From: a virus
Lineage: Duplodnaviria > Caudoviricetes
Virus record (IMG/VR): IMGVR_UViG_3300008740_000001
Coordinates: 96,001 to 160,000 of that record
Length of the DNA: 64,000 nucleotides
Direction: 5' to 3' (one strand)
Each line of letters begins with the position of its first letter. Position 1 is the stretch's first letter. Position numbers and translations under genes: made by a program. Positions 5,517 through 60,988 of this stretch are shown one piece after another. A model generated the notes under the pieces. The model did no database searches. It had not been told where the DNA came from and saw nothing but the letters and a program-made list of their open reading frames with translations.

Positions 5517-5559
5517 CTAATTATAAAAGAATACTACTTATTTAAAGGAAGCGAATATT

Positions 5560-6096: not shown

Positions 6097-6113
6097 TTAT
6101 AAAATGGCGAACA

Positions 6114-7697
6114 ATGGCAAAACTGTCCAAAAATCAACAAATCAAAGAAATATTAAAGTGTGGTAAAGACCCAAGTTATTTTTTAAGAAACTATGCCAAG
6201 ATATCTCATCCGCTACATGGTCTAATACCATTTAAAACTTATGATTTCCAAGACGACCTTTTATGTGATTTTAACGATTATCGTTTTAATGTTATTCTGA
6301 AAGCACGTCAGCTTGGAATATCCACTATCACGGCCGGATACATTGTTTGGCTGATGATGTTTCATCGGGATAAAAATGTTTTAGTCATGGCCACAAAGTT
6401 TGGCACAGCCGCCAACCTAGTCAAAAAGGTAAAAGCAATTGTCCAGCATATTCCGCCATGGCTAAAGATTACAGATATCAAAATAGACAACAGAACGTCC
6501 TTTGAGCTGTTAAACGGCTCTCAGATTAAAGCCTCTTCGACCTCTTTCGATGCCGGTCGTTCAGAGGCTCTTTCTTTGTTGGTCATTGACGAGGCGGCGC
6601 ACGTAGAGGGTTTAGAAGAATTGTGGACCGGTTTGTACCCTACGCTGTCGACTGGTGGCCGCTGCATTGCTCTATCAACCCCAAATGGTGTGGGTAACTG
6701 GTTTCACCAAACTTATATCGATGCTGACGAAGAGATTAATGATTTCCATCCAACGTGTTTGCGCTGGGATGTTCATCCTGATCGCGACGTAGATTGGTTT
6801 GAACGCGAAACGCGTAACATGTCCAGACGCCAGATTGCTCAAGAATTAGAATGTAATTTCAATACTTCTGGAGACAGTGTGATCCATCCAGATGACATAT
6901 CTATTCTTGTTGAGAACATTCGCGAGCCACAGTATAGAACCGGATTTGACAGGAATTATTGGATCTGGGAAGAGTACATGACCGAGGCCTCCTACCTGTT
7001 GGTGGCAGATGTCGCTCGCGGTGACGGCGCAGATAGTTCTGCTTTCCACATTATAAAACTAGAAACGATGGAAATTGTTGCAGAATATAAAGGAAAACCT
7101 ACAATTGATGCGTATTCTAGGATATTATATGATGCAGGTCTTGAATATGGTCGATGCCTTTTGGTGGTGGAGAACGTTGGAGTTGGATACTCGGTGTTAG
7201 AAAAGCTTATAGAACTAGAGTATCCCAATTTATATTATTCTGTCAAGTCTACGCACGAGTTTGTGGAGCAATACCAAGCAGAAGTCATGTCTAACGCAGT
7301 CGCCGGTTTTACCACTTCTACAAAAACTAGACCATTAGTTATTGCAAAACTGGAGGAATTCATTAGAAATAAACTAATTAAGATATATTCCGAAAGAACT
7401 GTGGAGGAACTTAAAACATTTATTTGGTATAATGGCAAGCCACAGGCTATGAGGGGCTACTCTGATGACCTAACCATGGCATTGGCAATTGCGTGCTGGG
7501 TTAGAGATACAGCCCTAACAGTAAACCAGCGAAATGTTGAATATCAGAAGGCCTTTTTGAGTTCGATCCAAACCACTAGTAGAAAAATGAACACTACAAT
7601 TGCAGGGATGGAAGGACACAAGCGCTCCAAGGGCGACAGAATAACCGAGGAAGAGAAAAAGAGAATGAAAGAATTTATGTGGGTATATAAAGGATAA
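6114..7697 (+). CDS. Terminase large subunit (T4 gp17-like)
   Basis: KARQLG (Walker A region), LVIDEAAH (Walker B), STPNG coupling motif, nuclease DVARGDGADSS and DD near C-terminus. Confidence 0.95.
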   Translation: MAKLSKNQQIKEILKCGKDPSYFLRNYAKISHPLHGLIPFKTYDFQDDLLCDFNDYRFNVILKARQLGISTITAGYIVWLMMFHRDKNVLVMATKFGTAANLVKKVKAIVQHIPPWLKITDIKIDNRTSFELLNGSQIKASSTSFDAGRSEALSLLVIDEAAHVEGLEELWTGLYPTLSTGGRCIALSTPNGVGNWFHQTYIDADEEINDFHPTCLRWDVHPDRDVDWFERETRNMSRRQIAQELECNFNTSGDSVIHPDDISILVENIREPQYRTGFDRNYWIWEEYMTEASYLLVADVARGDGADSSAFHIIKLETMEIVAEYKGKPTIDAYSRILYDAGLEYGRCLLVVENVGVGYSVLEKLIELEYPNLYYSVKSTHEFVEQYQAEVMSNAVAGFTTSTKTRPLVIAKLEEFIRNKLIKIYSERTVEELKTFIWYNGKPQAMRGYSDDLTMALAIACWVRDTALTVNQRNVEYQKAFLSSIQTTSRKMNTTIAGMEGHKRSKGDRITEEEKKRMKEFMWVYKG

Positions 7698-38739: not shown

Positions 38740-39086
38740 GTAGATATTTTGGTAGACGAAGAAAAACAACGAAAGAGAAGATGCACAAAGAGCTTCTTGA
38801 TAAGCGCGGCGTCAAGCATATTAAGCATTATACGACACCCGTCCTCTCTCACCCAACGGTTGAGGAAAGAAGCAAGTACACGCAAGAACTACATGTTTGG
38901 TCAGTGGGAGATCGCTATTATAAGCTAGCCCACAAGCATTACGGAGATTCTAAATATTGGTGGGTCATAGCCCACTGGAACCTTAAGCCCACTGAGGGAC
39001 ACTTAAACTTGGGTGATGCAGTTCGAATCCCCGGCCCGATTAATGTGGTATTAAATATCCTTAAGAGGAACGGCGGTGGTTATTAA
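38736..39086 (+). CDS. LysM-like baseplate wedge protein (gp53-like)
   Basis: GDR..KLAHKHYGDSKYWWVIA..N motif. Confidence 0.75.
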   Translation: MSRYFGRRRKTTKEKMHKELLDKRGVKHIKHYTTPVLSHPTVEERSKYTQELHVWSVGDRYYKLAHKHYGDSKYWWVIAHWNLKPTEGHLNLGDAVRIPGPINVVLNILKRNGGGY

Positions 39087-42000
39087 TGTCGCGGGGTTAT
39101 ACAGCGAAAGTACCAGCGAACTGGAGTTCCGACGTACTCGATCTTGTCAATAGTTTTGAGATCGAAGGCGCAACTATCTATTTTGATGATGCGAATAAAT
39201 TCTCGGCAGAAGACTTAGATATTATCTCTGGAGAGGCCATCGTCAAGAGTTTGTCTTATGACAGAGACTTTTCAGGCGAAGGCGATATGCCCGATGGACT
39301 ATACGAATATAAGGGCGAATCACAACGCCTAGGATCTGTGTTCAAAGATCTCGCCGGATGTATTGACGGCACTCAGAATTACTGCCTGTCGTATGAAGAT
39401 TTCGACGATATCGACAAAGATTATCTTTCTGACTGGATCGTCGATAATGTTTCCTCTGGAGATGATGCTTTACCTTTATCAAACGTCAAATCTGGAGATG
39501 ATATCTTTAAAAACACTTGGGGGAATGACCCCGACTATAAGATGTCCGAAAGATATAGCTGGTCTAAGACGCGCTGTGGAAGTATTACCTCTAGTGGCCG
39601 CGCCAGCGCAATGTCATCTAATACTGCCAAACTTCCGATGACATCCGGCGGTGTACAAGGCTCTTCCACCGCCCCCTCTATGCGTGAATATTCGGATCAG
39701 CTATTCGCAGATTCTCGATTCCTCTCACAGCGCATGCAATACATTTCGAAGGCCGTTACCGCATATGAAGAATTAGAGGATCTTGACGATGAAGCCGTAG
39801 AGGAGGGTATGGACCGCCTCGCGGAGTTGCAGGAGAAGGAAGAAGACGGCGATCTCACCCCCGAAGAAGCGGAAGAACTGGCGCGACTCCAAGGCGCGAT
39901 GACGCCATCCAACTTGAGCGATAGAGCTGATCAGCAGGCCGCAGTGGCCGCATTGGAAGAAAGTGGAGAGGCCGGCTCATATGCTGCAGCTATGCGAGCT
40001 ATGGAACAGTGTTTTATGATAAAGGATATTGTGACGATGGCTCAGGCGAACGTTCAAAGGAGTAGGGAAGGAAAAACTCAGTATCGTGTCGCAGACGGGC
40101 CGGCAGCACACATGGTACACGGAGAGATGGGCCAAACAGTTTCAAAATTAATGTTCGACCCGGCCTATTCTGCTTATTATTTTATGCCACCGAGCAAGTT
40201 GTCGTACTTGACCCCTTCAATAAAACTGTATCAAGTTTTGCATGAGGCAAACGCATCCGGGCCATCGCCCGAGACATCAGACTTGAATCCGCCGGTAGAC
40301 TTCCAAATACCATTCTTTCAACACATGACCCAGTATTCGATAGATCAGATCATGAACGGAGAAGAGGGTCGCGGCGGCATCATCGGCTTAAAGAGTTTTG
40401 ATTGGGTCTATCAGGGCTCAAATCCGGCTTCCTCTAGAAGAGATATTAAGGCGACCTTGATATTGGAGTGTCAATCGTTTGGGGAATTGGTTAGGGAAAG
40501 GACCGTAACCCTCCAAGGGCCAAACGGCGAGTTTACTCATCATTGGACCTATGCTGATTTGGCAATTCGAAGAAACCGCGACCACAGACAGGCACCCGAT
40601 GTGATATATCAGCAAACAAAAGTGGTAGTTGGTTGGGGTTTGGACGACGCGTCTGAAGAAATTAACACTCTTGGGTTTACAGAAGACGAGATCCGGGCAG
40701 TTAAGAACTCTCAAATGACAATGTTTTTGACATTAATTGATCACGGGTTTGATATCAGAGAGGATGGCACAGTAGAGATGAAAATTGAATATCGGGCCTA
40801 CATCGAAGGGGCGTTTACTTCACCGGAAGCCAATGTGTTGATTACAGATGATTTGTTAGAAAAACAGGCCGAACGAAAACGCTTGTTAGGTGAGATGCAG
40901 GCAGATATTAATGATCCGAACGGAAGATGTAGAACTGCAGATTTGCAGGAGTTAAAAAGAAGGTTTACTAATCAGATACATGAAGAGAAGGAGCAAGCAC
41001 ATCTTTCTCTCTTGAAGGGTCTAGAAGACGAAAATAGCATCTTTATTCGGACTATTGATATTGTAGAAATGATGCAATTTATGCAAAATCCTTTCGCGGG
41101 CTCTTCCGGGGCTAACGCTCAAACAGGAGCCAGCGGCAACCCTTCTGTTTCGGGGAACTCATCAGCCGACCAACTTAGGACAGCGGATGGAGTTGTCGCA
41201 GATTTGGAGTCTAAATTTAATTTTCCAGATCAAGCAGCCCACGGCAGTGCCGAAAGCCAAAGCACAAATGAGTTGTTGGAAAACGTATATACAGAAGAGG
41301 TCGACGGCGAATTTCAGGTACCTTACTTTTTCCTAGGAGATCTAATTCACGTTGCGCTTAAGAATATTTCCAAATCAGACACGGCGGATCCAAAGAAATT
41401 TAAAAATATGCGTTTATTGTTAGGGGCCCTCGAAATTAATGATTTTGAAAACTCAGATGTTAAGTATCAGATTAATATAGCGGACGTGCCCATTGCGGTT
41501 ACATATTTTTTGGAATGGTTCATGAACAGAATTCAAAAAAAGCAAGAAGTTGTTTGGTACCTTATGGACTTCATCAAAGATGTCATCAAAAATATGATTT
41601 ACAAAGTGCTTAATTCAGATGAGTGCTTCGCCGGCGCCGTAAGGCAAAAAGCCAACTTTCAGAACATCTATCTCGTGGGCAAAGGCAACGGTGGCGTTGA
41701 TAAGATACAGGAACTAATTGATACGCCCGCAGGCGCCGATACTGGCCTATATAAGCGTTTGTTCGTAGATGATGTGTCTAGCGACCAGTCGCCTATTTTA
41801 GAAGTTGACAAGTCGGACGAACAGATCGACGCCGCCGACATGTTTCACTACGTGCTCTTATACGCAGCAGATCCTACCCCGAGAAACCTGAATGGAAATT
41901 TCAGCGAAGATGTGGAAAAGGGTGTATATCATTTTCATATTGGTACCAACAAGGGTCTTGTCAAAAGGATCAAGTTTACTAAGACGGATCAGCCCGGCTT

Positions 42001-42415
42001 GAGAGAGGCGAGATACTTCAGTCAAGGTTATGACGGCTTATCACAATTGAGAGAGCCGTACAAGATAGATATTGAAATGTATGGTAATGCGAGAATCTTC
42101 CCGGGGCAGACAATTTACGTAGATCCGCAGGGATTGGGTTTTAATTTAGGCAGCCCTGCCAACGAGGGCTCAATGGCTTGGACGCTGGGTTTGGGCGGTT
42201 ATCACATGGTTATCAATGTTCAGCACACAATCGCCCGTGGAATATTTGATACTAGGGTTAATGCAGTGTGGGTGCTCCGAGGCGGCATGGGCGGAGAATC
42301 AACAGAGGCCGATGGTACCGAAACCCCGGCGCGCAATACATCAGCCTGTCAGGTCTTGAACAATTCGGGACTTCCGGCGAGCGGGTATGACCCAAGTAGC
42401 GAGGGAGGAGGGTAG
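39086..42415 (+). CDS. Baseplate hub protein (gp27/GpD-like), 1109 aa
   Basis: C-terminal IEMYGNARIFPGQTIYVD and GGY.V..V.H.I motifs typical of hub proteins; synteny. Confidence 0.6.
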   Translation: MSRGYTAKVPANWSSDVLDLVNSFEIEGATIYFDDANKFSAEDLDIISGEAIVKSLSYDRDFSGEGDMPDGLYEYKGESQRLGSVFKDLAGCIDGTQNYCLSYEDFDDIDKDYLSDWIVDNVSSGDDALPLSNVKSGDDIFKNTWGNDPDYKMSERYSWSKTRCGSITSSGRASAMSSNTAKLPMTSGGVQGSSTAPSMREYSDQLFADSRFLSQRMQYISKAVTAYEELEDLDDEAVEEGMDRLAELQEKEEDGDLTPEEAEELARLQGAMTPSNLSDRADQQAAVAALEESGEAGSYAAAMRAMEQCFMIKDIVTMAQANVQRSREGKTQYRVADGPAAHMVHGEMGQTVSKLMFDPAYSAYYFMPPSKLSYLTPSIKLYQVLHEANASGPSPETSDLNPPVDFQIPFFQHMTQYSIDQIMNGEEGRGGIIGLKSFDWVYQGSNPASSRRDIKATLILECQSFGELVRERTVTLQGPNGEFTHHWTYADLAIRRNRDHRQAPDVIYQQTKVVVGWGLDDASEEINTLGFTEDEIRAVKNSQMTMFLTLIDHGFDIREDGTVEMKIEYRAYIEGAFTSPEANVLITDDLLEKQAERKRLLGEMQADINDPNGRCRTADLQELKRRFTNQIHEEKEQAHLSLLKGLEDENSIFIRTIDIVEMMQFMQNPFAGSSGANAQTGASGNPSVSGNSSADQLRTADGVVADLESKFNFPDQAAHGSAESQSTNELLENVYTEEVDGEFQVPYFFLGDLIHVALKNISKSDTADPKKFKNMRLLLGALEINDFENSDVKYQINIADVPIAVTYFLEWFMNRIQKKQEVVWYLMDFIKDVIKNMIYKVLNSDECFAGAVRQKANFQNIYLVGKGNGGVDKIQELIDTPAGADTGLYKRLFVDDVSSDQSPILEVDKSDEQIDAADMFHYVLLYAADPTPRNLNGNFSEDVEKGVYHFHIGTNKGLVKRIKFTKTDQPGLREARYFSQGYDGLSQLREPYKIDIEMYGNARIFPGQTIYVDPQGLGFNLGSPANEGSMAWTLGLGGYHMVINVQHTIARGIFDTRVNAVWVLRGGMGGESTEADGTETPARNTSACQVLNNSGLPASGYDPSSEGGG

Positions 42416-43693
42416 ATGAAAGCAACTGACAAAAATATGATGCGCGGCAAAAACGACTTGTCATCGGATCTTATTTACTATTATCGGCTTTTGTACTCTG
42501 TTGTTCATAGTGTTGGTTCTCCGTATAAAAAGATTGGCAAAAGCGTCAGAAACTTTGAAAACGGAGAAAGAGTAATGTATGGGCGAGTTGACAGGGAGTA
42601 TGTTGCCATTTTGCCAAAAGAAGAACTGCTAGTGGCTCCCTCGGGCCAGACAGGCACGCAATTAGTTAGGGTAATGCCCTTCGTAGCAGATGCATTTGAG
42701 GATTTTCAAAAGGCATTTCAGTCAGCACTGTACGCCAAAAAGATAAGTGGCAATGACGCTTTTTTGTCGACGCCAATGCCAAAGAAGGGGTACATGTCCC
42801 CTACTCAACAATATAAAGAATATCGTCGTGCCATGTTTAAGATATTTATAAAATACTTAGACGCCTTAGACTGCCACAAGAAGATAACAGATTTTGAGAG
42901 CTTTCAGATTTACTTTATGGACTTTGTTAGAAACACAACTGCCCGGGCCCCTTTTACCATAGAAGGGTTTCAAAGAAGCCACCTTGCACACCCGCACATG
43001 TCTGGACTTGTAATAGACTTAGCAGACACGCTAGATCCGGCAGACGACAAGGCAAAAGTTGAAAAGATTTTTGAAAGCCCCAATTACAGATTTTATGAAA
43101 ACGCCGCAATGCAGTTTGGGTTTTCTATTGACAAAAACTGTCCTTGGAGACTGGTTGCAGATTTGGGTAGCCCCGTTATGCTCACATACATGGAAAATAG
43201 AGGATTTTCTTCAGTTGACAGGGTATTAAGAAAGTGTTATGATAAGGCTTATATGAGCGGGTACAATATATTCAAAACTATGTTAGAAATGTATTATAAT
43301 AGTTATATCGATCTCAAGAAGCGAGTAGTCTTTCCGAAGCGTAACTCGAAAGGGGACTATATTAGTGCCTCACTAAAGAGGAGCCAAACTAGTCTTGCTG
43401 ATTTATCTTTTGAATATGGCGAATCATACTTTTTAGAAAAATATATCACCATTAGAAATTTAGAAGAAGGGGGAATGTTTAGTGAGCAGAAAGTGCAGCT
43501 TATGCTGAGTCGCTCGTTAGAGATGATCCAAATAAGCGGTACAGAGTCGGCATTAAAGTACATCAATGAACAACTTTCTGATACCACCAATCGCTCTGGC
43601 TCGCTTGCACAGCGGAAACACAGAAGAAAAAAGAAAAAAGAAGAAGAAAAAGCCTTGCAATCTCAACCAAAACCGGGTACAATGAAATACTAG
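42416..43693 (+). CDS. Hypothetical protein
   Basis: 425-aa ORF abutting hub gene; no motif recognised. Confidence 0.7.
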   Translation: MKATDKNMMRGKNDLSSDLIYYYRLLYSVVHSVGSPYKKIGKSVRNFENGERVMYGRVDREYVAILPKEELLVAPSGQTGTQLVRVMPFVADAFEDFQKAFQSALYAKKISGNDAFLSTPMPKKGYMSPTQQYKEYRRAMFKIFIKYLDALDCHKKITDFESFQIYFMDFVRNTTARAPFTIEGFQRSHLAHPHMSGLVIDLADTLDPADDKAKVEKIFESPNYRFYENAAMQFGFSIDKNCPWRLVADLGSPVMLTYMENRGFSSVDRVLRKCYDKAYMSGYNIFKTMLEMYYNSYIDLKKRVVFPKRNSKGDYISASLKRSQTSLADLSFEYGESYFLEKYITIRNLEEGGMFSEQKVQLMLSRSLEMIQISGTESALKYINEQLSDTTNRSGSLAQRKHRRKKKKEEEKALQSQPKPGTMKY

Positions 43694-43704
43694 GTAGGTG
43701 TTCT

Positions 43705-44889
43705 TTGCTGTTTCAAGCACTAGATAACAAAAATGAATGTATTGGCGTATATGCCAACGGGGAGTTGATCTATGAACTCCCAGAGAATCTGACAAAAACG
43801 TGGGGATATTCCTCATTTCTTTCGGAACGAGAAATTGAATATGCTAGCCTATATTGCATGGGCAAGGACATATCAGAAGTGTGTCCCGAAGGATTAAGAG
43901 AGGAGTGGGCTTTGTCTTCTGAACGCATGCGCGCTTATCTGAAATCCTTTACAATTGCAAAGATATCCCTAGACGACAATTGTTTTTTCGACCTGATCCC
44001 GAAACGTCATTTAATGGAATTGTGCGAAGTTAAGAATAAGATAGCAGAGCATGTTTTCCAGACATATGAGAGGCCAAGGAATTATGAACATCTCTTGGCA
44101 GTCACGAAACTTGTGGAAGACATCGCGCAACAGCCGTTGAAAGTAAACTCCGCGAACATAAAACACCTCAGAGCCAGCTTGCAGGCTCGAAATTTTTTAA
44201 AGAAAATTCAACGATCATCGTCGTATTGTAAATATGTCGTCGACGGAACTAAAACCGGCAGGTTGACCGTAAGGCCAAACAGCTTTCCTATTTTGACAAT
44301 GAATAAAGATTTTCGCTCTGTCCTAGAGCCTCAAAATGATTGGTTTGTCGAATTAGATTACAATGCCGCCGAATTGCGAGTATTGTTGGCCTTGCTTGAA
44401 AAGGAACAGCCAAAAGGCGATATCCACAAGTGGAACTTGGAAAATGTGTTCAAAGGAATGAATACCAGATCTGGGGCGAAAAAGAGGGCCTTTGCTTGGC
44501 TGTATAACCCAAATTCAGAAGATACGCTTATGGATCACTTCTACGAAAGAAACGTGGTTGTGGATAAATTTTGGGACGGCTCTAACGTAAACACCTGTTT
44601 TGGCAGAACTATTCCGGCTGACTCCTTTCACGCACTAAACTATATTGTCCAAAGCACCTGTGCGGATATGGTCTTGGAGCAAGCATGCAAAATACATCGA
44701 TTGCTGGCTCATAAACGCTCCTCAATCGCGTTTGTGGTTCACGACAGTATAGTGCTCGACTTTGCGGACGAAGACCGTCAGACGCTAGCTGAGCTTGTTA
44801 GTGAATATTCCACTACAAGGTTAGGTCAGTTCATGGTAAACTTGAACGCAGGAAAAAACTTTGGCAACCTTAAACCATTGAGGACGTAA
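43705..44889 (+). CDS. Minimal family A DNA polymerase (polymerase domain only)
   Basis: TKTGRL, motif A LDYNAAELRVL, DIH, motif B RSGAKKRAFAWLY, ALNYIVQST.ADM, motif C VHDSIV; only 394 aa. Confidence 0.85.
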   Translation: MLFQALDNKNECIGVYANGELIYELPENLTKTWGYSSFLSEREIEYASLYCMGKDISEVCPEGLREEWALSSERMRAYLKSFTIAKISLDDNCFFDLIPKRHLMELCEVKNKIAEHVFQTYERPRNYEHLLAVTKLVEDIAQQPLKVNSANIKHLRASLQARNFLKKIQRSSSYCKYVVDGTKTGRLTVRPNSFPILTMNKDFRSVLEPQNDWFVELDYNAAELRVLLALLEKEQPKGDIHKWNLENVFKGMNTRSGAKKRAFAWLYNPNSEDTLMDHFYERNVVVDKFWDGSNVNTCFGRTIPADSFHALNYIVQSTCADMVLEQACKIHRLLAHKRSSIAFVVHDSIVLDFADEDRQTLAELVSEYSTTRLGQFMVNLNAGKNFGNLKPLRT

Positions 44890-45735
44890 ATGGATAAAAT
44901 CATCGGCCTAGGCGCCGCCGGCTGCAATGTGGTCAAAGAATTTCAGAAATTCCCACAATATACTGGATATCAGCTTGACGTTGGCCTTAAAGGTCTAAAG
45001 AAAAATGGAATATATTCTATAGAACCGCAGGAAACCCCAGAAGCATACGAATCTGGTTGTCCTTCTGTTAAAAATTTTCTGAAAGAGGCGAAGCCTACAG
45101 TAAAGTTCGTACTTGCTGGATCTGGCAAAATTGCAGGTGCGACACTTTCAATTTTAGAGCAAATCAAGGATAGAGATATCCACGTTTTGTTTGTGAAGTC
45201 TGACGAGCGGCGCCTGAGTGAACACGCACGGCTTACTGAACGTGCAACTTTTGGAATCTTGCAGGAATACGCCAGATCGGGGCTTTTGGGCTCTATTGAA
45301 CTTGTTAGCAACAAAGCGGTCAGTGGTATTTTGGGGAAAGTTCCGGTTATGGGATATTATCCAGCGATTAACGAACTAATGATCAACACCATGCACATGA
45401 TTAACGTATTTGACAACTCAACTCCTATTATATCGGACTTTTCCCCGGTTTCAGAGATTAATAGAATTGCAACGTATGGGGTCTGCCCGTTCGAAGAAAA
45501 AAATAAAGAAAATTTGTTTTTTCCACTTGACAACGTTCGACAAATGAGGTATTATTTTGCTATAAATCAAAAACAATTAGAAGAAGACACAGAATTAAAC
45601 TATAAAATTAATGAGTTTTTGGACGACTCACAAGAAGAAGAAATCGACACTTCATACGGAATTTATTCTACAAATTATGAACAAAATTTTGTATACTATA
45701 AACTATACACTAACGCAATACAGGAGTACAAATGA
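44890..45735 (+). CDS. Divergent tubulin/FtsZ-family protein (PhuZ/TubZ-like)
   Basis: N-terminal IIGLGAAGCNVV (FtsZ T1 loop), degenerate T4 loop AGSGKIAG, LVSN; about 280 aa. Confidence 0.7.
   Translation: MDKIIGLGAAGCNVVKEFQKFPQYTGYQLDVGLKGLKKNGIYSIEPQETPEAYESGCPSVKNFLKEAKPTVKFVLAGSGKIAGATLSILEQIKDRDIHVLFVKSDERRLSEHARLTERATFGILQEYARSGLLGSIELVSNKAVSGILGKVPVMGYYPAINELMINTMHMINVFDNSTPIISDFSPVSEINRIATYGVCPFEEKNKENLFFPLDNVRQMRYYFAINQKQLEEDTELNYKINEFLDDSQEEEIDTSYGIYSTNYEQNFVYYKLYTNAIQEYK
45527..45555 (+). promoter_or_regulatory. sigma70-type promoter inside tubulin gene
   Basis: TTGACA-N17-TATTAT. Confidence 0.55.
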
Positions 45736-46016
45736 AAGCGTATACGGGAACTTTTACCAAGGTGGATGGTAGCAAACGAACAATGAATTTTGTTCGCTTG
45801 ACAGACTTGCCAGACAGCTTCCTCGCCGCGCAAATTAAGGGGCGAAATCTCTCAGAAACACGAATTCGAGCCAAGGCTAGGATGGTTGCTGAGGGGAAGG
45901 AGACTGTATGGGATCTAGAGAAGAACACGTTTCGTATTTTTAACTGGAAAACGACCACCGGTGAGGTTACAGAAATCGAGATCGAAAATAAAAACTTTTT
46001 TGAAAATAATACTTGA
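45732..46016 (+). CDS. Small SH3/WYL-like phage protein (DUF2693-like)
   Basis: F.K.DGS.R.M and VWDLEK..FR.F motifs. Confidence 0.55.
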   Translation: MKAYTGTFTKVDGSKRTMNFVRLTDLPDSFLAAQIKGRNLSETRIRAKARMVAEGKETVWDLEKNTFRIFNWKTTTGEVTEIEIENKNFFENNT

Positions 46017-46041
46017 CTTTTATATAAAGCGGTGTTATATT
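46013..46041 (+). promoter_or_regulatory. sigma70-type promoter for SSB
   Basis: TTGACT-N17-TATATT with extended -10 TG. Confidence 0.8.
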
Positions 46042-46107: not shown

Positions 46108-46848
46108 ATGGCAATTGATATGAAGGCTATGCGCGCCAAGTTAAGCGCACTCAAGAACGGGGGTCAGAGGAACACTTTCTGGCGCCCACAGGATGGGGAT
46201 CAGACGATCCGCATTGTTACCCCGGAAGACGGAGATCCCTTTAAGGACTACTTCTTCCACTATAACGTGGGCAACAATAGTGGGTTTTTGTGCCCAAAGA
46301 GAAACTACGGAGATGACTGCGCAGTTTGCAACTTTGTTCGTGCCCTTTATGATGAAGGCACGGAGGAATCTGTAAAGATGGCAAAGTCCCTCACAGCCCG
46401 TCAGCGTTTCTTCAGTCCCGTCGTTGTACGTGGCGAGGAGAAGGAAGGGGTCCGCATTTGGGGTTATGGCAAGACCGCATATGAGACTCTTCTGAATCTG
46501 GTCCTTAACCCAGATTACGGTGATATCACCGATGTTGATGAGGGCACAGATCTTTCCGTTAACTACGGAAAGCCCGCCGGAGCTTCGTTCCCGCAAACGA
46601 AGATCCAACCTCGCCGTCGCACTAGTGCACTTGCGGATTCACCAGAGTTCGTGGCTGAGTTACTCAGCAATATTCCTGAGTTTGAAAGTCTCTTTGAAAA
46701 GAAGAGCACACAGGATGTTGAAGGACTCCTAGACGCTTTTTTGTCTGACGATGAAGATGTTGAAGAGCGCTCTAGTGAAACTGTTCGCTACACTTCAAAG
46801 AGTGAAACCTCAAGTGTTGATGAAGCGTTTGACTCGCTTCTAGCTTAA
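46108..46848 (+). CDS. Single-stranded DNA-binding protein (T4 gp32-like)
   Basis: FWRP, H...C...C..C Zn ligands, RFFSPV, IWGYGK, acidic C-terminal tail ending FDSLLA. Confidence 0.88.
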   Translation: MAIDMKAMRAKLSALKNGGQRNTFWRPQDGDQTIRIVTPEDGDPFKDYFFHYNVGNNSGFLCPKRNYGDDCAVCNFVRALYDEGTEESVKMAKSLTARQRFFSPVVVRGEEKEGVRIWGYGKTAYETLLNLVLNPDYGDITDVDEGTDLSVNYGKPAGASFPQTKIQPRRRTSALADSPEFVAELLSNIPEFESLFEKKSTQDVEGLLDAFLSDDEDVEERSSETVRYTSKSETSSVDEAFDSLLA

Positions 46849-47311: not shown

Positions 47312-48439
47312 ATGCTTAGAATGGCGAAAAGAAAGAAGAGTGGCGCCGGCAAGATGTCTATTGCCGATATGCGTTCAATTATCAACAAAAAGGCTGGAAT
47401 GGAAGTCGCCCACAGCCTAGCCGGTGAGAATCCAACCGAAGTAAAAGATTGGATTCCCACCGGTTCTCGTTGGCTGGATTCAATTATTGCCCGGGGCAAA
47501 CGAGCCGGGATCCCCGTAGGCAAGGTCACGGAGATCGCAGGTCTCGAAGCTTCTGGCAAGTCTTTCTTGGCTGCACAAGTTGCCGCCAACGCGCAGAAGA
47601 TGGGCATCGACGTAATCTATTTTGATTCTGAGTCTGCCATCGACCCAATGTTTTTGACACGGGCAGGGTGTGATATTAATGATCTTCTATATGTTCAAGC
47701 CTCTTCTGTTGAGTTTGTTCTGGAGACTATCGAAGATTTGCTGGCCAATAATGAGAACAGGATGCTTTTCATCTGGGACTCTCTAGCACTGACGCCGGCT
47801 ATATCGGACGTTGAAGGCGACTTTAACCCACAATCTTCTATGGCTATGAAGGCGCGCATTCTCGCCAAGGGCATGAGTAAACTAACAGTTCCGATTGCCA
47901 ACTCGCAGTCGACGTTTTTGGTCCTGAATCAGCTTAAGTCTAATATTACGCGCTCACCATCTGAAGCCCTTGTTACGCCTTATATGACACCGGGCGGCAA
48001 GGCTATGATTTACGCCTATTCGCTTCGGATTTGGCTAACTCGCCGGAAGGCAAAAGCCAGCTTTATTACAGACGACAAGGGGTTCCGCATCGGTTCAGAA
48101 GTAAAGGTAAAGTTGGAGAAATCACGCTTTGGAACACAGGGCCGTCAGTGCAACTTCAAAATTTTGTGGGGCACGGAAGATGTTGGTGTGCAAGACCGGG
48201 AATCATGGTTTGAAGCCATCAAGGGATCAGAACATATCAAGCAGGCCGGCGCATGGTTTACACTAATGTACGCTGACGGCACCGAAGAACGTTTTCAGGC
48301 GTCAAAGTGGGCGAAAAAGCTAGAAAATGAGAAGTTCCTTGCTAGGGTAGAAGAGCTTATGGATATCGAAGTTGTGAGAAAATTCGATGCACGCGAAGGC
48401 ACTGCCGAAGAATTTTACGGGGAAAAAGAAGAAAATTAA
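47312..48439 (+). CDS. recA: RecA/UvsX recombinase
   Basis: IPTGS..LD, EIAGLEASGKS Walker A, DSE, WDS, NQL, TPGGKA, KSRF motifs (start may be 47321). Confidence 0.95.
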   Translation: MLRMAKRKKSGAGKMSIADMRSIINKKAGMEVAHSLAGENPTEVKDWIPTGSRWLDSIIARGKRAGIPVGKVTEIAGLEASGKSFLAAQVAANAQKMGIDVIYFDSESAIDPMFLTRAGCDINDLLYVQASSVEFVLETIEDLLANNENRMLFIWDSLALTPAISDVEGDFNPQSSMAMKARILAKGMSKLTVPIANSQSTFLVLNQLKSNITRSPSEALVTPYMTPGGKAMIYAYSLRIWLTRRKAKASFITDDKGFRIGSEVKVKLEKSRFGTQGRQCNFKILWGTEDVGVQDRESWFEAIKGSEHIKQAGAWFTLMYADGTEERFQASKWAKKLENEKFLARVEELMDIEVVRKFDAREGTAEEFYGEKEEN

Positions 48440-48448
48440 AAAAAACAC

Positions 48449-48477
48449 TTGACTACTTATTGCAAAAGTGTTATATT
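48449..48477 (+). promoter_or_regulatory. sigma70-type promoter
   Basis: TTGACT-N17-TATATT with extended -10 TG. Confidence 0.8.
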
Positions 48478-49380: not shown

Positions 49381-49409
49381 TTGACTCAGGCCCCTGTATC
49401 TGTTATATT
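49381..49409 (+). promoter_or_regulatory. sigma70-type promoter embedded in 13-bp inverted repeat
   Basis: TTGACT-N17-TATATT with extended TG; arms at 49388-49400 and 49414-49426. Confidence 0.8.
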
Positions 49410-49928: not shown

Positions 49929-50158
49929 GGCTTGTAGATTGCGAAACTCCAGAAGTAAAACACTTAAAGGTGGGAGACTTAGTAACCTTTGACCCAAAAC
50001 ACTGCGGCCCCGAGTGGGCCGAAAAGATTGCAATTATTCTCGATATTGACATGGATATGTTGACACTTTGGTGCGAATATGATATATTTGATAGACAACC
50101 ATGGTGGGCCGTAACCATATTAAGCAAGGCAACAAATGAAACGAGTATTGATTATTGA
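49925..50158 (+). CDS. Hypothetical protein
   Basis: 77-aa ORF overlapping both neighbours. Confidence 0.55.
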   Translation: MRLVDCETPEVKHLKVGDLVTFDPKHCGPEWAEKIAIILDIDMDMLTLWCEYDIFDRQPWWAVTILSKATNETSIDY

Positions 50159-51101
50159 CGCACTAAATATGTTTTTTAGAGCGTACATTGTAGACCCAAG
50201 TCTTTCCACTAACGGCCAACCCATTGGTGGTCTTAAAGGCTTTCTTAAGATTTTGCAGAAGCAGATCCGCGAGACAAAGCCAGACGAAGTGGTGATTGCT
50301 TGGGACGGCCAAGGTGGTTCCCGCAAGCGTAAGTCGGTTAACAAGAATTACAAAGAAGGACGCAAGCCAATACGTTTGAATCGTTCCATTCGGAACATGA
50401 CCGAGAACGAAGAAATGGAAAACAAGGTGTGGCAACAAACACGCCTATTCGACTATCTAAACGAGATGCCGATCTCTCAGGTGGTCTTGCCAGAGGTGGA
50501 GGCTGATGACGTGATTGCCGCTGTAAAGATTCTCGATTATTATCGCGGCTGGCAAAAGGTTATCGTTTCCAGCGATAAAGACTTTCTGCAATTGTGCGAT
50601 CACGAAACCGTTTTGTTTCGTCCAATTCAGAAGGTGGTGATGAACCGAAATGATGTTGTGGAAGAATATGGAATCCACCCAGAGAATATGGCCCTCGCCC
50701 GCGCTATCGTTGGTGACAAGTCGGACAACTTGGCTGGCATTTCTGGCATTGGTTTGAAAACTGTTGCTAAGAGATTTCCATTTTTGGCAAACGAGGAAAA
50801 TTGTACAATCGATAACTTGATTGAACACTGCGAAAACCACGAAGAATCAAGCTTGAAGGTATACACTTCGATTGTTGAAAATAGAGAACTAATTGAGGAA
50901 AACTATAAGCTTATGCAGCTTTATGTTCCATCGATTTCCGTACAGGGAAGACAGAAGGTAAAGTACGCCGTAGAAAACTCCGAAAAGAGCTTTAATCAAA
51001 CAGAAATTAATGTTATGATGCTACAAGATGGTATGGGAGTCTGGGATTGGACGACCCTATTTACCACCATGAAACGAATCGTAGCAAACTCAAAGGAATA
51101 G
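50136..51101 (+). CDS. 5'-3' exonuclease / RNase H (T4 rnh, Pol I N-domain-like)
   Basis: LIID..N, AWDG, YK.GR, EADD, SSDKDF.QL, GDKSDNLAG.SGIGLKT (H3TH) motifs. Confidence 0.92.
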   Translation: MKRVLIIDALNMFFRAYIVDPSLSTNGQPIGGLKGFLKILQKQIRETKPDEVVIAWDGQGGSRKRKSVNKNYKEGRKPIRLNRSIRNMTENEEMENKVWQQTRLFDYLNEMPISQVVLPEVEADDVIAAVKILDYYRGWQKVIVSSDKDFLQLCDHETVLFRPIQKVVMNRNDVVEEYGIHPENMALARAIVGDKSDNLAGISGIGLKTVAKRFPFLANEENCTIDNLIEHCENHEESSLKVYTSIVENRELIEENYKLMQLYVPSISVQGRQKVKYAVENSEKSFNQTEINVMMLQDGMGVWDWTTLFTTMKRIVANSKE

Positions 51102-51110
51102 GGGCGCCCA

Positions 51111-52469
51111 ATGGAAGAAAAGGTGGATTTCGGCCGCTACGGTAAGAGGTTTCAAGAGGGACTGTGCCAGCTGGTTTTGCAAGATAGGCCCTTTGCTGAT
51201 CGTATCACTGAAGTGCTGGATTTAAACTTTTTGGAACTGGCATATTTGCAGACTTTCGTTAAGAAGATTGTAGAATATCGTGACAAGTATGGTGTTCACC
51301 CCGAATACGAAACCATGCTTACGATCTTGCGAACCGAAATAGAAGACGAGCCAGAAGTTGTCCAAAAGCAAGTACGCAGCTTCTTTGCGCGCATTCACAA
51401 GTCCGACGTTGAAGGGCCAGAGTATATCAAAGAAATTTCTCTAGATTTTTGCAGGAAGCAGAAATTGAAAGAAGCTATGTTGGAATCTGTGAAGCTTCTG
51501 AAGTCATCCTCATATGATGAGATTTCGCAAGTTATCAACGAGGCTCTTAAGCTCGGATCTGACAATAATTTTGGATATGACTATGTTGCTGATTTCGAGG
51601 AACGCTTTAAGTTTAAGGCCCGGGATCCGATCTCAACAGGCTGGGCCGAGATCGACGCGATCTGTAAGACCGGTCTCGGCAAGGGCGAACTGGGCGTCGT
51701 CATTGCTCCCACGGGTACTGGAAAGTCGATGGTATTGGTACATTTAGGCGCGGAAGCCTTACGACAAGGCAAAACGGTAGTGCAGTATACATTGGAACTT
51801 CAGGACACAACCATCGCCACGCGCTATGATAGCTGCTTAACCAACATCCCACTAGATGAACTAGTGGGGTTCAAGGAAGAGATCTTTGAATTGGTTCAAG
51901 ATATCGAAGGGAAGTTAATTATTAAGGAATACCCGACAAAATCAGCCTCTCTTAAGACGATTAACAACCATCTCGATGGCCTGAAGAAGAGAGATATTGA
52001 TGTTGATGTGGTAATCGTTGATTATGCAGATCTTTTGCGACCAATTAATTCTCAAAGAGAGAAAAGAATGGAACTGGAGGCTATTTACGAAGGACTACGC
52101 GCAATTGCACAAGAGCGCAAATGCGCAGTATGGACGGCCTCGCAGACAAATCGCGGAGGTCTGAACGCAGAGGTGATTACAATGGAGTCAATTTCAGAGG
52201 CTTTTAACAAGTGTTTTGTTGCAGACTTTATTTTTTCGGTTTCTCGCACAGTGCAAGACAAGGCCACCAATAGTGGGCGAGTATTCATTGCAAAAAACAG
52301 AAATGGCCCTGATGGTTTGATTTATCCTATATACATGGATACTAGCAGAGTCAAGATAAAAGTATTTCCCAGCCAAAACGAAACCATTGAGGGCATCGCT
52401 GCCGTATCAGCTAAAGAACAGCAACAGTCTCTAAAGGACAAGTACAAAAAATTTAAAAGGAAAGATTAA
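51111..52469 (+). CDS. Replicative helicase (DnaB/T4 gp41-like)
   Basis: APTGTGKS Walker A, TLE, VDYADL, TASQTNR, AKNRNG motifs. Confidence 0.93.
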   Translation: MEEKVDFGRYGKRFQEGLCQLVLQDRPFADRITEVLDLNFLELAYLQTFVKKIVEYRDKYGVHPEYETMLTILRTEIEDEPEVVQKQVRSFFARIHKSDVEGPEYIKEISLDFCRKQKLKEAMLESVKLLKSSSYDEISQVINEALKLGSDNNFGYDYVADFEERFKFKARDPISTGWAEIDAICKTGLGKGELGVVIAPTGTGKSMVLVHLGAEALRQGKTVVQYTLELQDTTIATRYDSCLTNIPLDELVGFKEEIFELVQDIEGKLIIKEYPTKSASLKTINNHLDGLKKRDIDVDVVIVDYADLLRPINSQREKRMELEAIYEGLRAIAQERKCAVWTASQTNRGGLNAEVITMESISEAFNKCFVADFIFSVSRTVQDKATNSGRVFIAKNRNGPDGLIYPIYMDTSRVKIKVFPSQNETIEGIAAVSAKEQQQSLKDKYKKFKRKD

Positions 52470-56634: not shown

Positions 56635-57512
56635 GATTACGCCAAAGACACATCGCTGGCATCATCCCGGTGGCCGGCCGCGAAGATATTTTCGGTTTCG
56701 AATGGCCAGACTGTGTAATGCCTTTATCCGAAGATTATACTTGCGTCGAACGAAGTGTGCTTGAGTGCGCTTATGCTGGTTGTAAGACAATTTGGGTAAT
56801 TTGCAACGACGATGTGGCTCCCGTGTTAAAACACCGCATAGGCGAATATGTAAACGATCCAGTTTGGCAACATAGAAAAGACAAATATCCAAGTGATAGT
56901 CGCCGCATTATACCAGTCTTTTATGTCCCGACACATCCAAAAGATGTCAACAAGAGAGATTGTATGGCTTGGAGTATTATCTATGGTGCCCTAACTGCTT
57001 TTAAGATTGGTTCATCTCTTAGTAAATGGGTGGCTCCGTATCGATATTACGTGTCTTTTCCATACGGGATATATGATCCTTCTGTTATCCGAGAGCACAG
57101 AAATAGTATTAAAAAAGAAGAGGTTTTCGCCCTATCTTACGAGCAAAACACAGCAAAAGAGAATAAGTATTTGGGCTTTACCTTTGGGAAAGAAGAATGG
57201 CTAGAGTTTAGGCGGGTCATCCGCTCGGGAACGGGCATGTTCACGTCAGACAACATGGCAGAGGGCAAGTATCCCAGAACATTGTTGCCACTAGCTGAAA
57301 GATATTCCGCCAAAAATTTTTCACTTAGTAAAGTTCTGGCAGCCCTACAACCTACAAATTTAGTCGAGATTGATAGTTATAACTCAATAGACAGTTGGCA
57401 GGATTACGTCGATTATATGGCGTCCGAAAATATTTTAAAAAAACCACATAACTACTTGACAAGTGGTAAGAAATTGAATACAATATATAAAGAAGATAAG
57501 GAGTCTCAATGA
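56631..57512 (+). CDS. Nucleotidyltransferase-fold protein (NTP_transferase-like, degenerate)
   Basis: GIIPVAG start, P.CVMPL, VLECAYAGCKTIWVI pattern; canonical GxGTR and Lys missing. Confidence 0.5.
   Translation: MRLRQRHIAGIIPVAGREDIFGFEWPDCVMPLSEDYTCVERSVLECAYAGCKTIWVICNDDVAPVLKHRIGEYVNDPVWQHRKDKYPSDSRRIIPVFYVPTHPKDVNKRDCMAWSIIYGALTAFKIGSSLSKWVAPYRYYVSFPYGIYDPSVIREHRNSIKKEEVFALSYEQNTAKENKYLGFTFGKEEWLEFRRVIRSGTGMFTSDNMAEGKYPRTLLPLAERYSAKNFSLSKVLAALQPTNLVEIDSYNSIDSWQDYVDYMASENILKKPHNYLTSGKKLNTIYKEDKESQ
57456..57484 (+). promoter_or_regulatory. sigma70-type promoter for dnaE
   Basis: TTGACA-N17-TACAAT. Confidence 0.7.
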
Positions 57513-60500
57513 AAACAAACCCCAACAGGAAGAAGGGAAGTCTTCCCTTCGTAAACCTTCATGCTCACAGTGTGGCCGGATCGATCTTCGATGCGATTGG
57601 GTACCCGCAAGATCATATGGATTTCGCATATGAAAACGGGCTTAACGCCTTGGCACTCACAGATCATGGAAACATGAATGGATTGGCATATCAGGTCTTG
57701 CATGGTAAGAAAATGGCAGAAGAAGGAAGGGACTTCAAACCGATTTATGGTGTTGAGGCGTACTTCGTTCCGTCCCTTTCGCAATGGAGAACAGAGTATG
57801 AGAAGGTCATGGAGGATAAGAAGAAGGCACGCTCTTCTGCCAAGGGTCTTCAATCCGGCGCAACCGTAGAGGACTCTCATGAGTCGAAGCGAGCAATGAA
57901 TAACGTTCTAAAGCGCCGCAGTCATTTGGTCCTGTTGGCTCAAAACCAAGAGGGCTTGAATAATATTTTCAAACTTATTTCTGAAAGTTATAAGGCAGAA
58001 AACTTTTATCGATATCCGCGTATTGATTACGCGCTTCTGGAGAAATATAGTGATGGCATTATTGCCTCATCTGCATGTCTGGGAGGTATTTATGCCGGAG
58101 ATTACTGGCGTGCTAGCACCTATGACGAGGAGGGAAATCGCACCGGCGTCGACACTGATGCTGCTTTGGAATCCATGAGGGAAACGACGCAGCGTATGCA
58201 GTCGATTTTCGGAGATAGGTGGTACGGAGAACTGCAGTGGAACAACATCAAGGAACAGCATGAGTTGAACAACATGATCATTCAAATGGCTACAGAGTTT
58301 GACATGGACTTGATTTCTACGGCAGATAGTCATTATCCAAATCCCGATGCTTGGAAGGATCGTGAACTCTATAATCGCCTAGGCTGGCTTGGCAAGGGGC
58401 GCCCATCGTGGGCCGAAGAAGATTCGGATCTACCTGTGGATGTCGATGAGATCGGGTACGAACTATATCCCAAGAATGGTGATCAGATGTGGGATTCGTA
58501 TAGAAAGTACTCCAAGCACTGCAATGTAGAATACGATGATACTGTGGTTCGCAACTCTATTACAAACAGTTACGCCATTGCAGAGGAACGCATTGAGCGC
58601 TTCTTTCCCGATAACACAGTTAGGCTTCCAGACTTTGTTGTTCCGGTTGGAATGACCGCAACTCAAGCATTAGTAAAGTTGTCCATGGATGGCCTTAACG
58701 AACTTGGCTTGGCTGAAAATGAAGAGTATCTTGGAAGACTTAAGTCGGAACTAAAGGTCATCGATGATCGAGGCTTCTCAAAGTACTTCTTGACTATGAA
58801 GGCGATCTCTGATCGTGCTACTGAGACGATGCTCACCGGGCCCGGTCGAGGCTCCGCTGCTGGCTCATTGGTGGCGTATGCTTTGAAGATTACACAAGTT
58901 GATCCGATTAAACACGGCTTGTTGTTCTCTAGATTTCTGCGTTCAGACGCAACGGACTACCCAGATATTGATTACGATGTGGCCGATCCGATGGCCCTTA
59001 AGGAGCAGCTAATTGAAGAATGGGGAGAGGATACCGTTGCTCCAATCTCTAACTGGAACACGCTGCAGCTTCGCTCCTTGATCAAAGACATTTCCAAGCT
59101 GTATGGTGTCGAATTTACCGAGGTTAATAAGGTGACATCTACAATGATGTCAGAGGCAACACCTGCTGCAAAGCAAAAGCATGGAATCAAGGCCGGCGTA
59201 TACGCGCCAACTTGGCAAGAAGTTGTCGAGTTCAGTCCTACGTTGCGTGATTTTCTAAACAAGTATCCAGATATCCGCACACACGTTGAAACTTTGGTTG
59301 GACAAGTCCGCTCGTGTTCCCGGCATGCCGGTGGTGTAGTGGTAGCCGAAAATCTTGATCGGCATATGCCGCTGATCAACTCGGGAGGAGTTAGGCAGAC
59401 CCCGTGGTCTGAGGGACAGAATGTCAGGCACCTTGAGCCCATGGGGTTCATTAAATTTGATATTCTGGGTCTGGCTAGTCTTCGGATGATCGACGGAGCT
59501 ATTCGCCACGTTCTCAAGAGGCACCATAACATAGAACAGCCCACATTCTCAGATGTGAAGGACTTTTATAATAAGCATCTCCATCCTGACACAATTGACT
59601 TTGATGATCAGGCAGTATATGAAAATGTTTTTCATGCAGCAAAGTGGGCCGGCGTGTTTCAGTTTACAGAGACTGGCTCACAGAACTTCTGTGTACGTGC
59701 ACAGCCACGCAGCATTATTGATCTGTCTGCAATCACTTCGATCTTTCGACCGGGCCCACTCTCGGCCGGCGTGGATACTGATTATGTGGACGCAAAAACT
59801 TCCCCGCAGTATATTAAGTATGCGCACCCGCTCGTGCAAGAGGTCACCGAGGAAACTTATGGATTTCTGATCTTTCAAGAGCAGATTGCCCTCTTGGCAC
59901 ATAAGCTTGGCAAAGATTTGAGTCTGGATGAGGGCAACAAGTTGCGCAAACTCCTTACCAAGAAGGGCACTGGCAGTGCGGCCCGCGAGAAGAAGCGAAT
60001 TCACAAGAAGTTTGTAGACGGTTGCACCGAAAAGGGAATGAAGAAGGATGTGGCGCAGAGACTCTGGGAGACATTTGAGTACTTCTCGGGATATGGCTTC
60101 AACAAGTCGCATGCAGTTTCATATAGTATTCTATCGTTCCAGTGCGCATGGTTGCTGAACTACTACCCGTCTGAGTGGGTGGCAGCATTTCTTGACAAGG
60201 AGCCGGAGTCTCGCAAGGAAAAGGCAATTGGTATTGCCAAGAGTCTTGGCTTTGAGATTGAGCCGCTGAACGTCAACACATCTGGCAGGGTGTGGGAGAT
60301 TACGGAATCTGGTACAACACTAGTCCAGCCGTTTAACTCGATTAAGGGTCTTGGTGATGCTGCGATTGATCAGATTTTAAACAATAGACCGTTTAATAAC
60401 ATTGAAGAGTTTTTGTTTAACGAAGAGATCTCTTATTCTAAGCTGAACAAGAAGGCTCTGGACGTATTGATCAGAAGTGAGGCCTTGGATACTCTCATGG

Positions 60501-60988
60501 ATGAGCGCTTTACCGGGGCGAAGCACTTCTGGTCTGCGGTGGCTGTGGACCGACCGAAGAATAAGAAGAAGTTTCTAGAGAACGTTGAGCTTTATCGACC
60601 AGAGGGAGATTTTACAGAAGAAGAGAAGATCCAGTCTATTGTTGATTTGACAGGATCGTTCCCTATGAGTCGAGTCATCGACGAAGATGTGATGCAAAGG
60701 CTTGAGGAAAAGTGTATCCCGCCCATCGCGGAATACGATTCAGACTTGCAAGTAACTTGGTTCATTCCTCGCAAGGTTACAGCTAAGAAAACAAAGAACG
60801 GCAAGCTCTATTGGATTCTAGAAGTTATTGATTCAACCAATTCGCTTACCAAGATTCGTTGTTGGGGCGTAAAGCCGGAGCAAGATCGTATTCTTATGAA
60901 CCGGCCCTATCTTGCTAGGTTGGACCACAATCAACAGTGGGGGTTCAGCACGCGCTCTATTCGATACAATTTTCGACTACTGGGATAA
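57509..60988 (+). CDS. dnaE: DNA polymerase III alpha subunit (family C)
   Basis: PHP motifs HAHS, TDHGNMNG; GRGSAAGSL; PDIDYD; RHAGGV; KFDILGL; YGFNKSHA; no intein seen. Confidence 0.96.
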   Translation: MKTNPNRKKGSLPFVNLHAHSVAGSIFDAIGYPQDHMDFAYENGLNALALTDHGNMNGLAYQVLHGKKMAEEGRDFKPIYGVEAYFVPSLSQWRTEYEKVMEDKKKARSSAKGLQSGATVEDSHESKRAMNNVLKRRSHLVLLAQNQEGLNNIFKLISESYKAENFYRYPRIDYALLEKYSDGIIASSACLGGIYAGDYWRASTYDEEGNRTGVDTDAALESMRETTQRMQSIFGDRWYGELQWNNIKEQHELNNMIIQMATEFDMDLISTADSHYPNPDAWKDRELYNRLGWLGKGRPSWAEEDSDLPVDVDEIGYELYPKNGDQMWDSYRKYSKHCNVEYDDTVVRNSITNSYAIAEERIERFFPDNTVRLPDFVVPVGMTATQALVKLSMDGLNELGLAENEEYLGRLKSELKVIDDRGFSKYFLTMKAISDRATETMLTGPGRGSAAGSLVAYALKITQVDPIKHGLLFSRFLRSDATDYPDIDYDVADPMALKEQLIEEWGEDTVAPISNWNTLQLRSLIKDISKLYGVEFTEVNKVTSTMMSEATPAAKQKHGIKAGVYAPTWQEVVEFSPTLRDFLNKYPDIRTHVETLVGQVRSCSRHAGGVVVAENLDRHMPLINSGGVRQTPWSEGQNVRHLEPMGFIKFDILGLASLRMIDGAIRHVLKRHHNIEQPTFSDVKDFYNKHLHPDTIDFDDQAVYENVFHAAKWAGVFQFTETGSQNFCVRAQPRSIIDLSAITSIFRPGPLSAGVDTDYVDAKTSPQYIKYAHPLVQEVTEETYGFLIFQEQIALLAHKLGKDLSLDEGNKLRKLLTKKGTGSAAREKKRIHKKFVDGCTEKGMKKDVAQRLWETFEYFSGYGFNKSHAVSYSILSFQCAWLLNYYPSEWVAAFLDKEPESRKEKAIGIAKSLGFEIEPLNVNTSGRVWEITESGTTLVQPFNSIKGLGDAAIDQILNNRPFNNIEEFLFNEEISYSKLNKKALDVLIRSEALDTLMDERFTGAKHFWSAVAVDRPKNKKKFLENVELYRPEGDFTEEEKIQSIVDLTGSFPMSRVIDEDVMQRLEEKCIPPIAEYDSDLQVTWFIPRKVTAKKTKNGKLYWILEVIDSTNSLTKIRCWGVKPEQDRILMNRPYLARLDHNQQWGFSTRSIRYNFRLLG

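Follow-up and report, generated by a model that had tools for sequence, protein, structure and literature searches.

The reading frame at 43705–44889 of a 64,000-nucleotide stretch of phage DNA (hereafter the window) encodes a genuine and strongly conserved DNA polymerase of family A that has been cut down to 394 amino acids (aa) and that we call the mini-polymerase. The window covers positions 96001–160000 of the IMG/VR virus record IMGVR_UViG_3300008740_000001, a complete genome of 203,859 bp with direct terminal repeats, which belongs to an uncultured marine T4-related phage of ~204 kb. All window coordinates given below refer to the plus strand, which carries all substantial genes of the window. 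The mini-polymerase belongs to divPolA1, a group of phage polymerases already described in print, and its kind was thus known. From its sequence and predicted structure we read it, with a probability of about 0.6, as an active, non-proofreading and poorly processive accessory polymerase that would serve short DNA synthesis.

The frame comprises 394 codons, opens with a TTG start preceded four bases upstream by an AGGTG ribosome-binding site (43696–43700), and lies 11 bases after the end of the preceding gene. Its product matched Pfam PF00476 (DNA_pol_A) with 54.8 bits for a cut-off of 34.3, a scan of the whole genome giving the same frame, and PHROG_17 'DNA polymerase' with an E value of 1.9e-18. 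Motif positions were set by alignment to the Bst and Klenow enzymes, and the conservation of each residue was counted over 225 full-length family members. The TGR motif that contacts the primer terminus (T184-G185-R186, 44254–44262) aligns to TGRLSS of Bst and Klenow, with R186 kept in 224 of the 225 members. Motif A, D218-Y-N-A-A-E223-L-R225 (LDYNAAELR, 44356–44379), holds a catalytic Asp, D218, present in every member, and the steric-gate Glu; R225 is found in 222. The steric-gate position, E223 (E. coli E710), is occupied by Glu in 200 members and by Asp in 22. A DIH motif follows at D239/H241, D239 being invariant (225/225). Motif B, the O-helix (44467–44505), aligns to RRSAKAINFGLIYG of Klenow through R255 (224/225), K259 (225/225), F263 and Y267 (221/225). 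Position 263, equivalent to E. coli F762, is Phe in a majority of members but not universally (F 201, I 8, L 7, Y 3), and Q316 is kept in 224. Motif C, H346-D347-S348 ... D352 (44740–44760), aligns to QVHDE of Bst and Klenow and brings the second catalytic Asp; both D347 and D352 are present in all 225 members. A first-pass annotation, made from the letters of the window, had described motifs A, B and C as intact, with a Phe at the F762 position, and the alignment located these residues as described.

An AlphaFold2 model of the mini-polymerase, built from a 95-sequence alignment, reached a predicted local distance difference test score of 96.4 and a predicted template modelling score of 0.93, and displays the right-hand fold of Pol I-type enzymes. 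Structural alignment placed Klenow residues 352–928 onto model residues 1–390, leaving ~200 Klenow residues unmatched. Residues 1–140 (43705–44124) form a shrunken 3'-5' exonuclease-fold domain of the DEDD type, as judged from the structural alignment. The DxE exonuclease motif is absent from the 225-member alignment, in which the ExoI strand reads Q-x-L-D-x-K (Q4-x-L6-D7). Judged by these residues, the mini-polymerase is almost certainly dead for proofreading, and its exonuclease domain is degenerate rather than absent, a small and probably inactive scaffold. A polymerase domain devoid of any exonuclease domain was considered and rejected because of the exonuclease-fold N-terminus seen in the structural alignment. 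The thumb is reduced to a stub of two short helices (149–155 and 159–170 in the AlphaFold2 secondary structure) at about residues 148–175 (44146–44229, boundaries inferred). Residues 137–149, which give a weak hidden Markov model match to VLSRIERNGVKID of Klenow, correspond to the first, 'motif 1'-like palm segment; about 33 residues separate this segment from the TGR motif, compared with about 115 in Klenow, so that most of the thumb has been lost. The fingers are reduced as well, K259 to D347 spanning 88 residues instead of 124 in E. coli. The modelled layout is that of a miniaturised Klenow enzyme, with a full polymerase active site (palm plus reduced fingers) and a dead exonuclease domain. 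The first-pass annotation had judged the thumb to be very short, which the model bears out. It had also reported the 3'-5' exonuclease region as missing and suggested structure prediction as a check, an exonuclease-like N-terminus being the outcome that would speak for an ordinary Klenow-like enzyme; the absence of the motif stands, but the N-terminus does model as an exonuclease fold, which partly goes against that view.

The divPolA1 group was described from Flavobacterium phage immuto and 13 related genomes of 155–190 kb, all of which also encode a family A, B or C polymerase of the regular type (Yutin, Tolstoy, Mutz, Wolf, Krupovic, Koonin 2024, Virol J 21:200, PMC11348598; preprint 10.1101/2024.04.26.591309). 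In these proteins the thumb is truncated and the carboxylates of the exonuclease domain are replaced while the catalytic residues of the palm are kept; conserved replication genes lie downstream, and chaperonin genes adjoin the regular polymerases (PMC11348598). The mini-polymerase is homologous to a named member, coexists with an extra regular polymerase, is followed by replication genes, and has a truncated thumb and replaced exonuclease carboxylates, the published analysis and ours having reached the same structural conclusions independently. In both cases a small divergent PolA stands beside a regular polymerase in T4-related phages, and immuto gp1 occupies the same syntenic position. The scale is different: the paper deals with 14 genomes, whereas the ~394-aa marine clade alone accounted for over 1,877 clusters at 90% identity in a search of 5.8 billion proteins, nearly all of them 392–399 aa long and aligning end to end. 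The marine clade shares only ~17–19% identity with divPolA1 proteins of the immuto type and, unlike these, retains the Glu of the steric gate and the Arg of motif B. We infer that the ~394-aa clade is identical with the marine divPolA1 sub-clade of the paper. Yutin et al. assign no function to divPolA1 (PMC11348598), and the name appears in no later paper in the literature.

Many homologues stemmed from aquatic samples, those of Tara among them, and lay on contigs of up to 204 kb, and an exhaustive search over 50%-identity representatives gave 250 clusters at E < 1e-30. A tblastn search of 50,697 phage records gave nothing beyond weak C-terminal hits in mycobacteriophage PolA, with 28% identity across 24% of the query, and the homologues of immuto, Microcystis phage Mel-JY01 and the uncultured 484-kb phage LR756508 were found by profile search of individual genomes. 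Gene order was fixed in 80 IMG/VR loci that carry close homologues (47–68% identity): tape measure, three baseplate-region genes, mini-polymerase, a 281-aa gene, gp32, UvsX, flap endonuclease (FEN), DnaB and ribonucleotide reductase (RNR). The order was unchanged in nine more distant IMG/VR loci (37–43% identity). Five large relatives (106–190 kb), two of them complete records, were scanned whole; DnaE, the family C polymerase, was found in four, including both complete records, with a length of 1,142–1,159 aa, FEN was found in all five, and PolB in none.

The virion genes of the source phage are T4-like (major head protein PHROG_138, tail sheath PHROG_23, tape measure), and the nearest cultured-phage matches of its capsid are immuto, Mel-JY01 and Rhodothermus phage RM378. 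In immuto, the homologue is gp1 (441 aa, E 1.1e-21; immuto_3-5A, MW353176, 1–1326), matched by family profile A2, and the regular polymerase is a 777-aa PolA adjoining GroES/GroEL. Two small genes follow gp1, and then SSB (single-stranded DNA-binding protein), RecA, 5'-3' exonuclease, DnaB and RNR, the module as in the window. Mel-JY01 carries a homologue of 408 aa (E 3e-16; locus L092, 4398–5624) and a PolB as regular polymerase, and LR756508 one of 452 aa (E 1.3e-25; locus L087, 1015–2373) with a PolB plus a DnaE-like frame. Since immuto, with a full PolA, and Mel-JY01, with a PolB, carry the homologue at the same position, the mini-polymerase appears as the constant element and the main polymerase as the variable one. 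The profile search of RM378, the third phage with a related capsid, detected a PolB and no mini-polymerase. Aligned gp1 retains T184, R186, D218, K259, Y267, Q316, D347 and D352; these distant homologues all keep the two catalytic Asp residues, Q316 and, in motif B, Lys and Tyr. They have, however, a His at the steric-gate position (DYDAFHLR) and YDA in motif C, and lack the motif B Arg. They may differ from the marine clade in the substrate that they prefer and in the status of the exonuclease. Their N-terminal domains are longer and begin with …IVESE….

The first-pass annotation had presented the gene as one part of a split Pol I working with DnaE. This proved too narrow, because in relatives the partner of the mini-polymerase can be PolB or a full PolA; on the same ground we rejected an origin by fission of bacterial Pol I that would be confined to DnaE phages. 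A likeness to the Pol I and Pol III of E. coli in Okazaki-fragment maturation, the functional analogy behind the gap-filling/Okazaki enzyme of the first-pass annotation, lies in the joint presence of a replicase of family C, a polymerase of family A and a 5' flap nuclease. Unlike in E. coli Pol I, polymerase and nuclease are here separate genes ~5 kb apart and proofreading is lacking: neither the active DEDD site nor the fused 5' nuclease of a functional bacterial Pol I is found. The mini-polymerase also accompanies PolB or PolA replicases, so that its partnership with DnaE is non-specific. The large fragments of Bst, Taq and M. smegmatis Pol1 have, likewise, a vestigial exonuclease domain. 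In comparison with them the mini-polymerase is ~190 residues shorter (394 versus ~540–580), has deletions of the thumb tip and of parts of both the fingers and the exonuclease domain, and reads HDS in place of HDE. It is moreover a phage gene that accompanies another replicase, and it appears never to be fused to a 5' nuclease, for which the search, having returned no longer fused form, gives weak evidence. The divPolA2 proteins of barbaviruses offer another example of a second divergent PolA with an intact palm beside a regular polymerase (PMC11348598). They possess no homologous thumb, an unrelated N-terminal globular domain and variable neighbourhoods (PMC11348598), whereas the N-terminus of the mini-polymerase is an exonuclease fold and its neighbourhood is fixed.

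We favour an accessory role. At the head of a replication and recombination block (tubulin-like gene, gp32, UvsX, FEN, DnaB, RNR), and apparently expressed from its own host-type promoter, the mini-polymerase would be a DNA-templated, non-proofreading and distributive enzyme, selective for deoxynucleoside triphosphates (dNTPs), whose products are short pieces of DNA. It might extend primers or recombination intermediates (D-loops) and fill gaps beside FEN, and most of the 204-kb genome would be copied by DnaE or whichever regular polymerase takes its place in relatives. The presence of a steric-gate Glu or Asp in 222 of 225 members argues for the use of dNTPs. Deletion of the thumb tip lowers DNA affinity and processivity in Klenow, and polymerases without proofreading normally serve short patches; it is from these two precedents that we infer low processivity and a division of labour. 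The accessory, poorly processive enzyme of the first-pass annotation thus remains reasonable in view of the intact catalytic residues, the missing proofreading motifs, the short thumb and the co-conserved DnaE and FEN, while the specific pairing with DnaE does not.

Several observations weigh against this interpretation. Residue 348, equivalent to E. coli E883 and the third carboxylate of motif C, is Ser in 196 of the 225 members (A 12, N 6, C 5, E 5), and motif C thus reads HDS in place of HDE in 87% of them. In Klenow, mutating the equivalent of E883 lowers activity, and slow turnover or an altered metal geometry may follow from a Ser at this position. T4-type phages with a PolB otherwise need, to our knowledge, no separate gap-filling polymerase. 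No beta-clamp N-terminal domain (PF00712) was found in the 204-kb genome, so that bulk synthesis by DnaE is itself presumed; its processivity might come from the host clamp or from an unrecognised factor. The mini-polymerase, and not the main polymerase, heads the replication block, the main polymerases being located among genes for chaperonins and nucleotide metabolism. For Yutin et al. these contrasting locations leave the roles of both enzymes open (PMC11348598), and the literature contains no biochemical or genetic data on any member.

Alternatively, the clade could have the mini-polymerase as its conserved core replicase, with partner proteins that replace the thumb and give processivity, and with DnaE, PolB or PolA serving repair, a second mode of replication or escape from host defences that target polymerases. 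This would account for an enzyme that is invariant while the family of the regular polymerase changes between relatives, for its place at the head of a block of SSB, recombinase, FEN and helicase genes in conserved order, and for the lack of a detected phage clamp for DnaE. In addition, Yutin et al. find the function of the regular polymerases 'less obvious' from their context (PMC11348598). We nonetheless consider a core replicase unlikely: a polymerase with no proofreading and only a thumb stub is poorly suited to a 204-kb genome, no candidate processivity factor was identified, and DnaE is full length (PHP, alpha, finger and HhH domains) and conserved in size among relatives. A specialised enzyme for repair, lesion bypass or modified nucleotides, copying DNA that the main polymerase handles badly, seems to us equally doubtful. 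Bypass enzymes typically lack proofreading and have reduced fingers and thumbs, as here; motif C carries the alteration to HDS, relatives possess nucleotide-modification genes (e.g. QueF in immuto), and the best structural matches include Pol nu and Pol theta. Their scores are, however, no better than those of ordinary Pol I enzymes and the Pol theta-type inserts are absent; the dNTP-binding residues R255, K259 and Y267 are canonical, with mostly Phe at 263, and no modification pathway was demonstrated for this phage.

It is very improbable that the protein is an inactive structural relic or a PolA-fold derivative that synthesises RNA in the manner of a primase or an RNA polymerase. The first-pass annotation would have recognised a relic by catalytic Asp residues that vary among homologues. 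Both catalytic Asp residues and the Arg, Lys and Tyr of motif B are instead strictly conserved; such near-100% conservation is the pattern expected if catalysis is selected for, and it excludes a relic. Synthesis of RNA is opposed by the retained steric gate and by structural scores about twice as high for DNA polymerases as for RNA polymerases. No promoter-recognition domain and none of the N-terminal or specificity domains of single-subunit (T7-type) RNA polymerases is present.

The gene that immediately follows the mini-polymerase (44890–45735, its start abutting the polymerase stop) encodes a compact 281-aa protein of the tubulin/FtsZ superfamily. This tubulin/FtsZ-fold gene follows the mini-polymerase in 79 of the 80 close loci, and among the nine distant loci it lies directly 3' of the polymerase in all seven that have downstream sequence. 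The two genes that follow gp1 in immuto are unrelated to the tubulin-like protein, and the pairing is thus specific to the ~394-aa marine clade. The possibility that these two small genes represent a split tubulin-like gene was rejected, since hhalign gave a probability below 1% for both. Yutin et al. make no mention of tubulin, FtsZ or TubZ (PMC11348598) and, as far as we could find, the pairing of a mini-polymerase with a tubulin-fold protein is previously unreported. It is conceivable that the two proteins form one unit, a filament-associated or filament-positioned polymerase that would organise the replication site, or that the mini-polymerase would be the constant replicase of the clade, its processivity given by a partner and DnaE, PolB and PolA being exchangeable add-ons; we regard this pair of ideas as a long shot. 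Some relatives have a 100-aa frame between the two genes (e.g. locus L012, 11182–11484, plus strand), which is also seen in loci where the tubulin-like gene lies ~1,490 nucleotides after the polymerase start. By eye its N-terminus (…KLVRDRIPEII…) resembles MazG-like nucleoside triphosphate pyrophosphohydrolases, with no Pfam match at E 0.01. In three relatives (L055, L080 and L082) the polymerase and tubulin-like genes are separated by an insertion of ~2.5 kb, which in L055 is a 783-aa frame (4398–6749, plus strand) with no significant Pfam match.

Beyond the tubulin-like gene, the window continues with genes for a gp32-type SSB, UvsX, FEN, DnaB, RNR, a GroES-like protein, ClpP and a full-length DnaE. 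The gp32-type gene (46108–46848; PF08804, E 1.1e-13; PHROG_1192) is syntenic in 73 of the 80 loci. It is followed by the UvsX/RecA recombinase (47312–48439; PHROG_97, E 1.9e-56; PF00154), by the stand-alone 5'-3' exonuclease or FEN (50136–51101; PF02739, E 7e-30; PF01367, E 2e-9) and by the DnaB-type replicative helicase (51111–52469; PHROG_19, E 1.6e-71; PF03796). A stand-alone FEN is the usual RNase H arrangement of T4-type phages. DnaE, the family C alpha subunit of Pol III (57509–60988; PHROG_405, E 8.8e-225), contains PHP, DNA_pol3_alpha, finger and HHH_6 domains, and the co-occurrence of DnaE and a separate 5'-3' exonuclease, already pointed out in the first-pass annotation, is confirmed by the domains of both proteins. 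DnaE is the only other DNA polymerase detected in the whole genome, in which a Pfam profile scan revealed neither a PolB nor a second PolA; no separate DEDD exonuclease (PF01612, RNase_T) was detectable by Pfam in the 203,859 bp either.

Upstream of the mini-polymerase, a sigma-70-type promoter-like site (TTGACA-17-TATGAT, TG-extended, 11 of 12 positions) is located at 43215–43243, inside the 3' part of the preceding structural gene. The pattern TTGACA-N16-18-TANNNT was found within 800 nucleotides upstream of the mini-polymerase in 48 of 70 relatives, most often at -100 to -50, for a background of 0.23 per kb. These sites suggest that the gene opens an early or middle replication operon and is not part of the late tail genes; a host-type promoter of its own is probable on the strength of consensus matches. 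Five further near-consensus sites (TTGACA/TTGACT-17-TATNNT) at 45527–45555, 46013–46041, 48449–48477, 49381–49409 and 50060–50088 precede successive replication genes, including p94, gp32 and FEN, and it looks as if the whole replication module might be driven by host-type promoters. Directly 5' of the polymerase, genes of 1,109 and 425 aa (39086–43693) have a conserved synteny, in 57 and 72 of the 80 loci respectively. Neither matched a Pfam or PHROG family, and both are probably baseplate proteins, given their position after the tape measure.

Compared with the published description (PMC11348598), the present analysis adds the scale of the family (thousands of members versus 14), residue statistics (HDS and a retained steric gate), a probable promoter of its own and the pairing with a tubulin-like gene. 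With 394 residues and a complete active site, the mini-polymerase is a natural minimal family A polymerase, on which the contributions of the thumb and of the exonuclease domain can be probed. The polymerase–tubulin gene pair provides a concrete lead, and the cultured relative immuto makes the function testable. The mini-polymerase is the one polymerase that the clade never exchanges, whereas the main one switches between families A, B and C, and this inverts the usual notion of which enzyme is the core one. As the family is far commoner in aquatic viromes than the 14 reported genomes indicate, any function found for it would apply to abundant marine phages.
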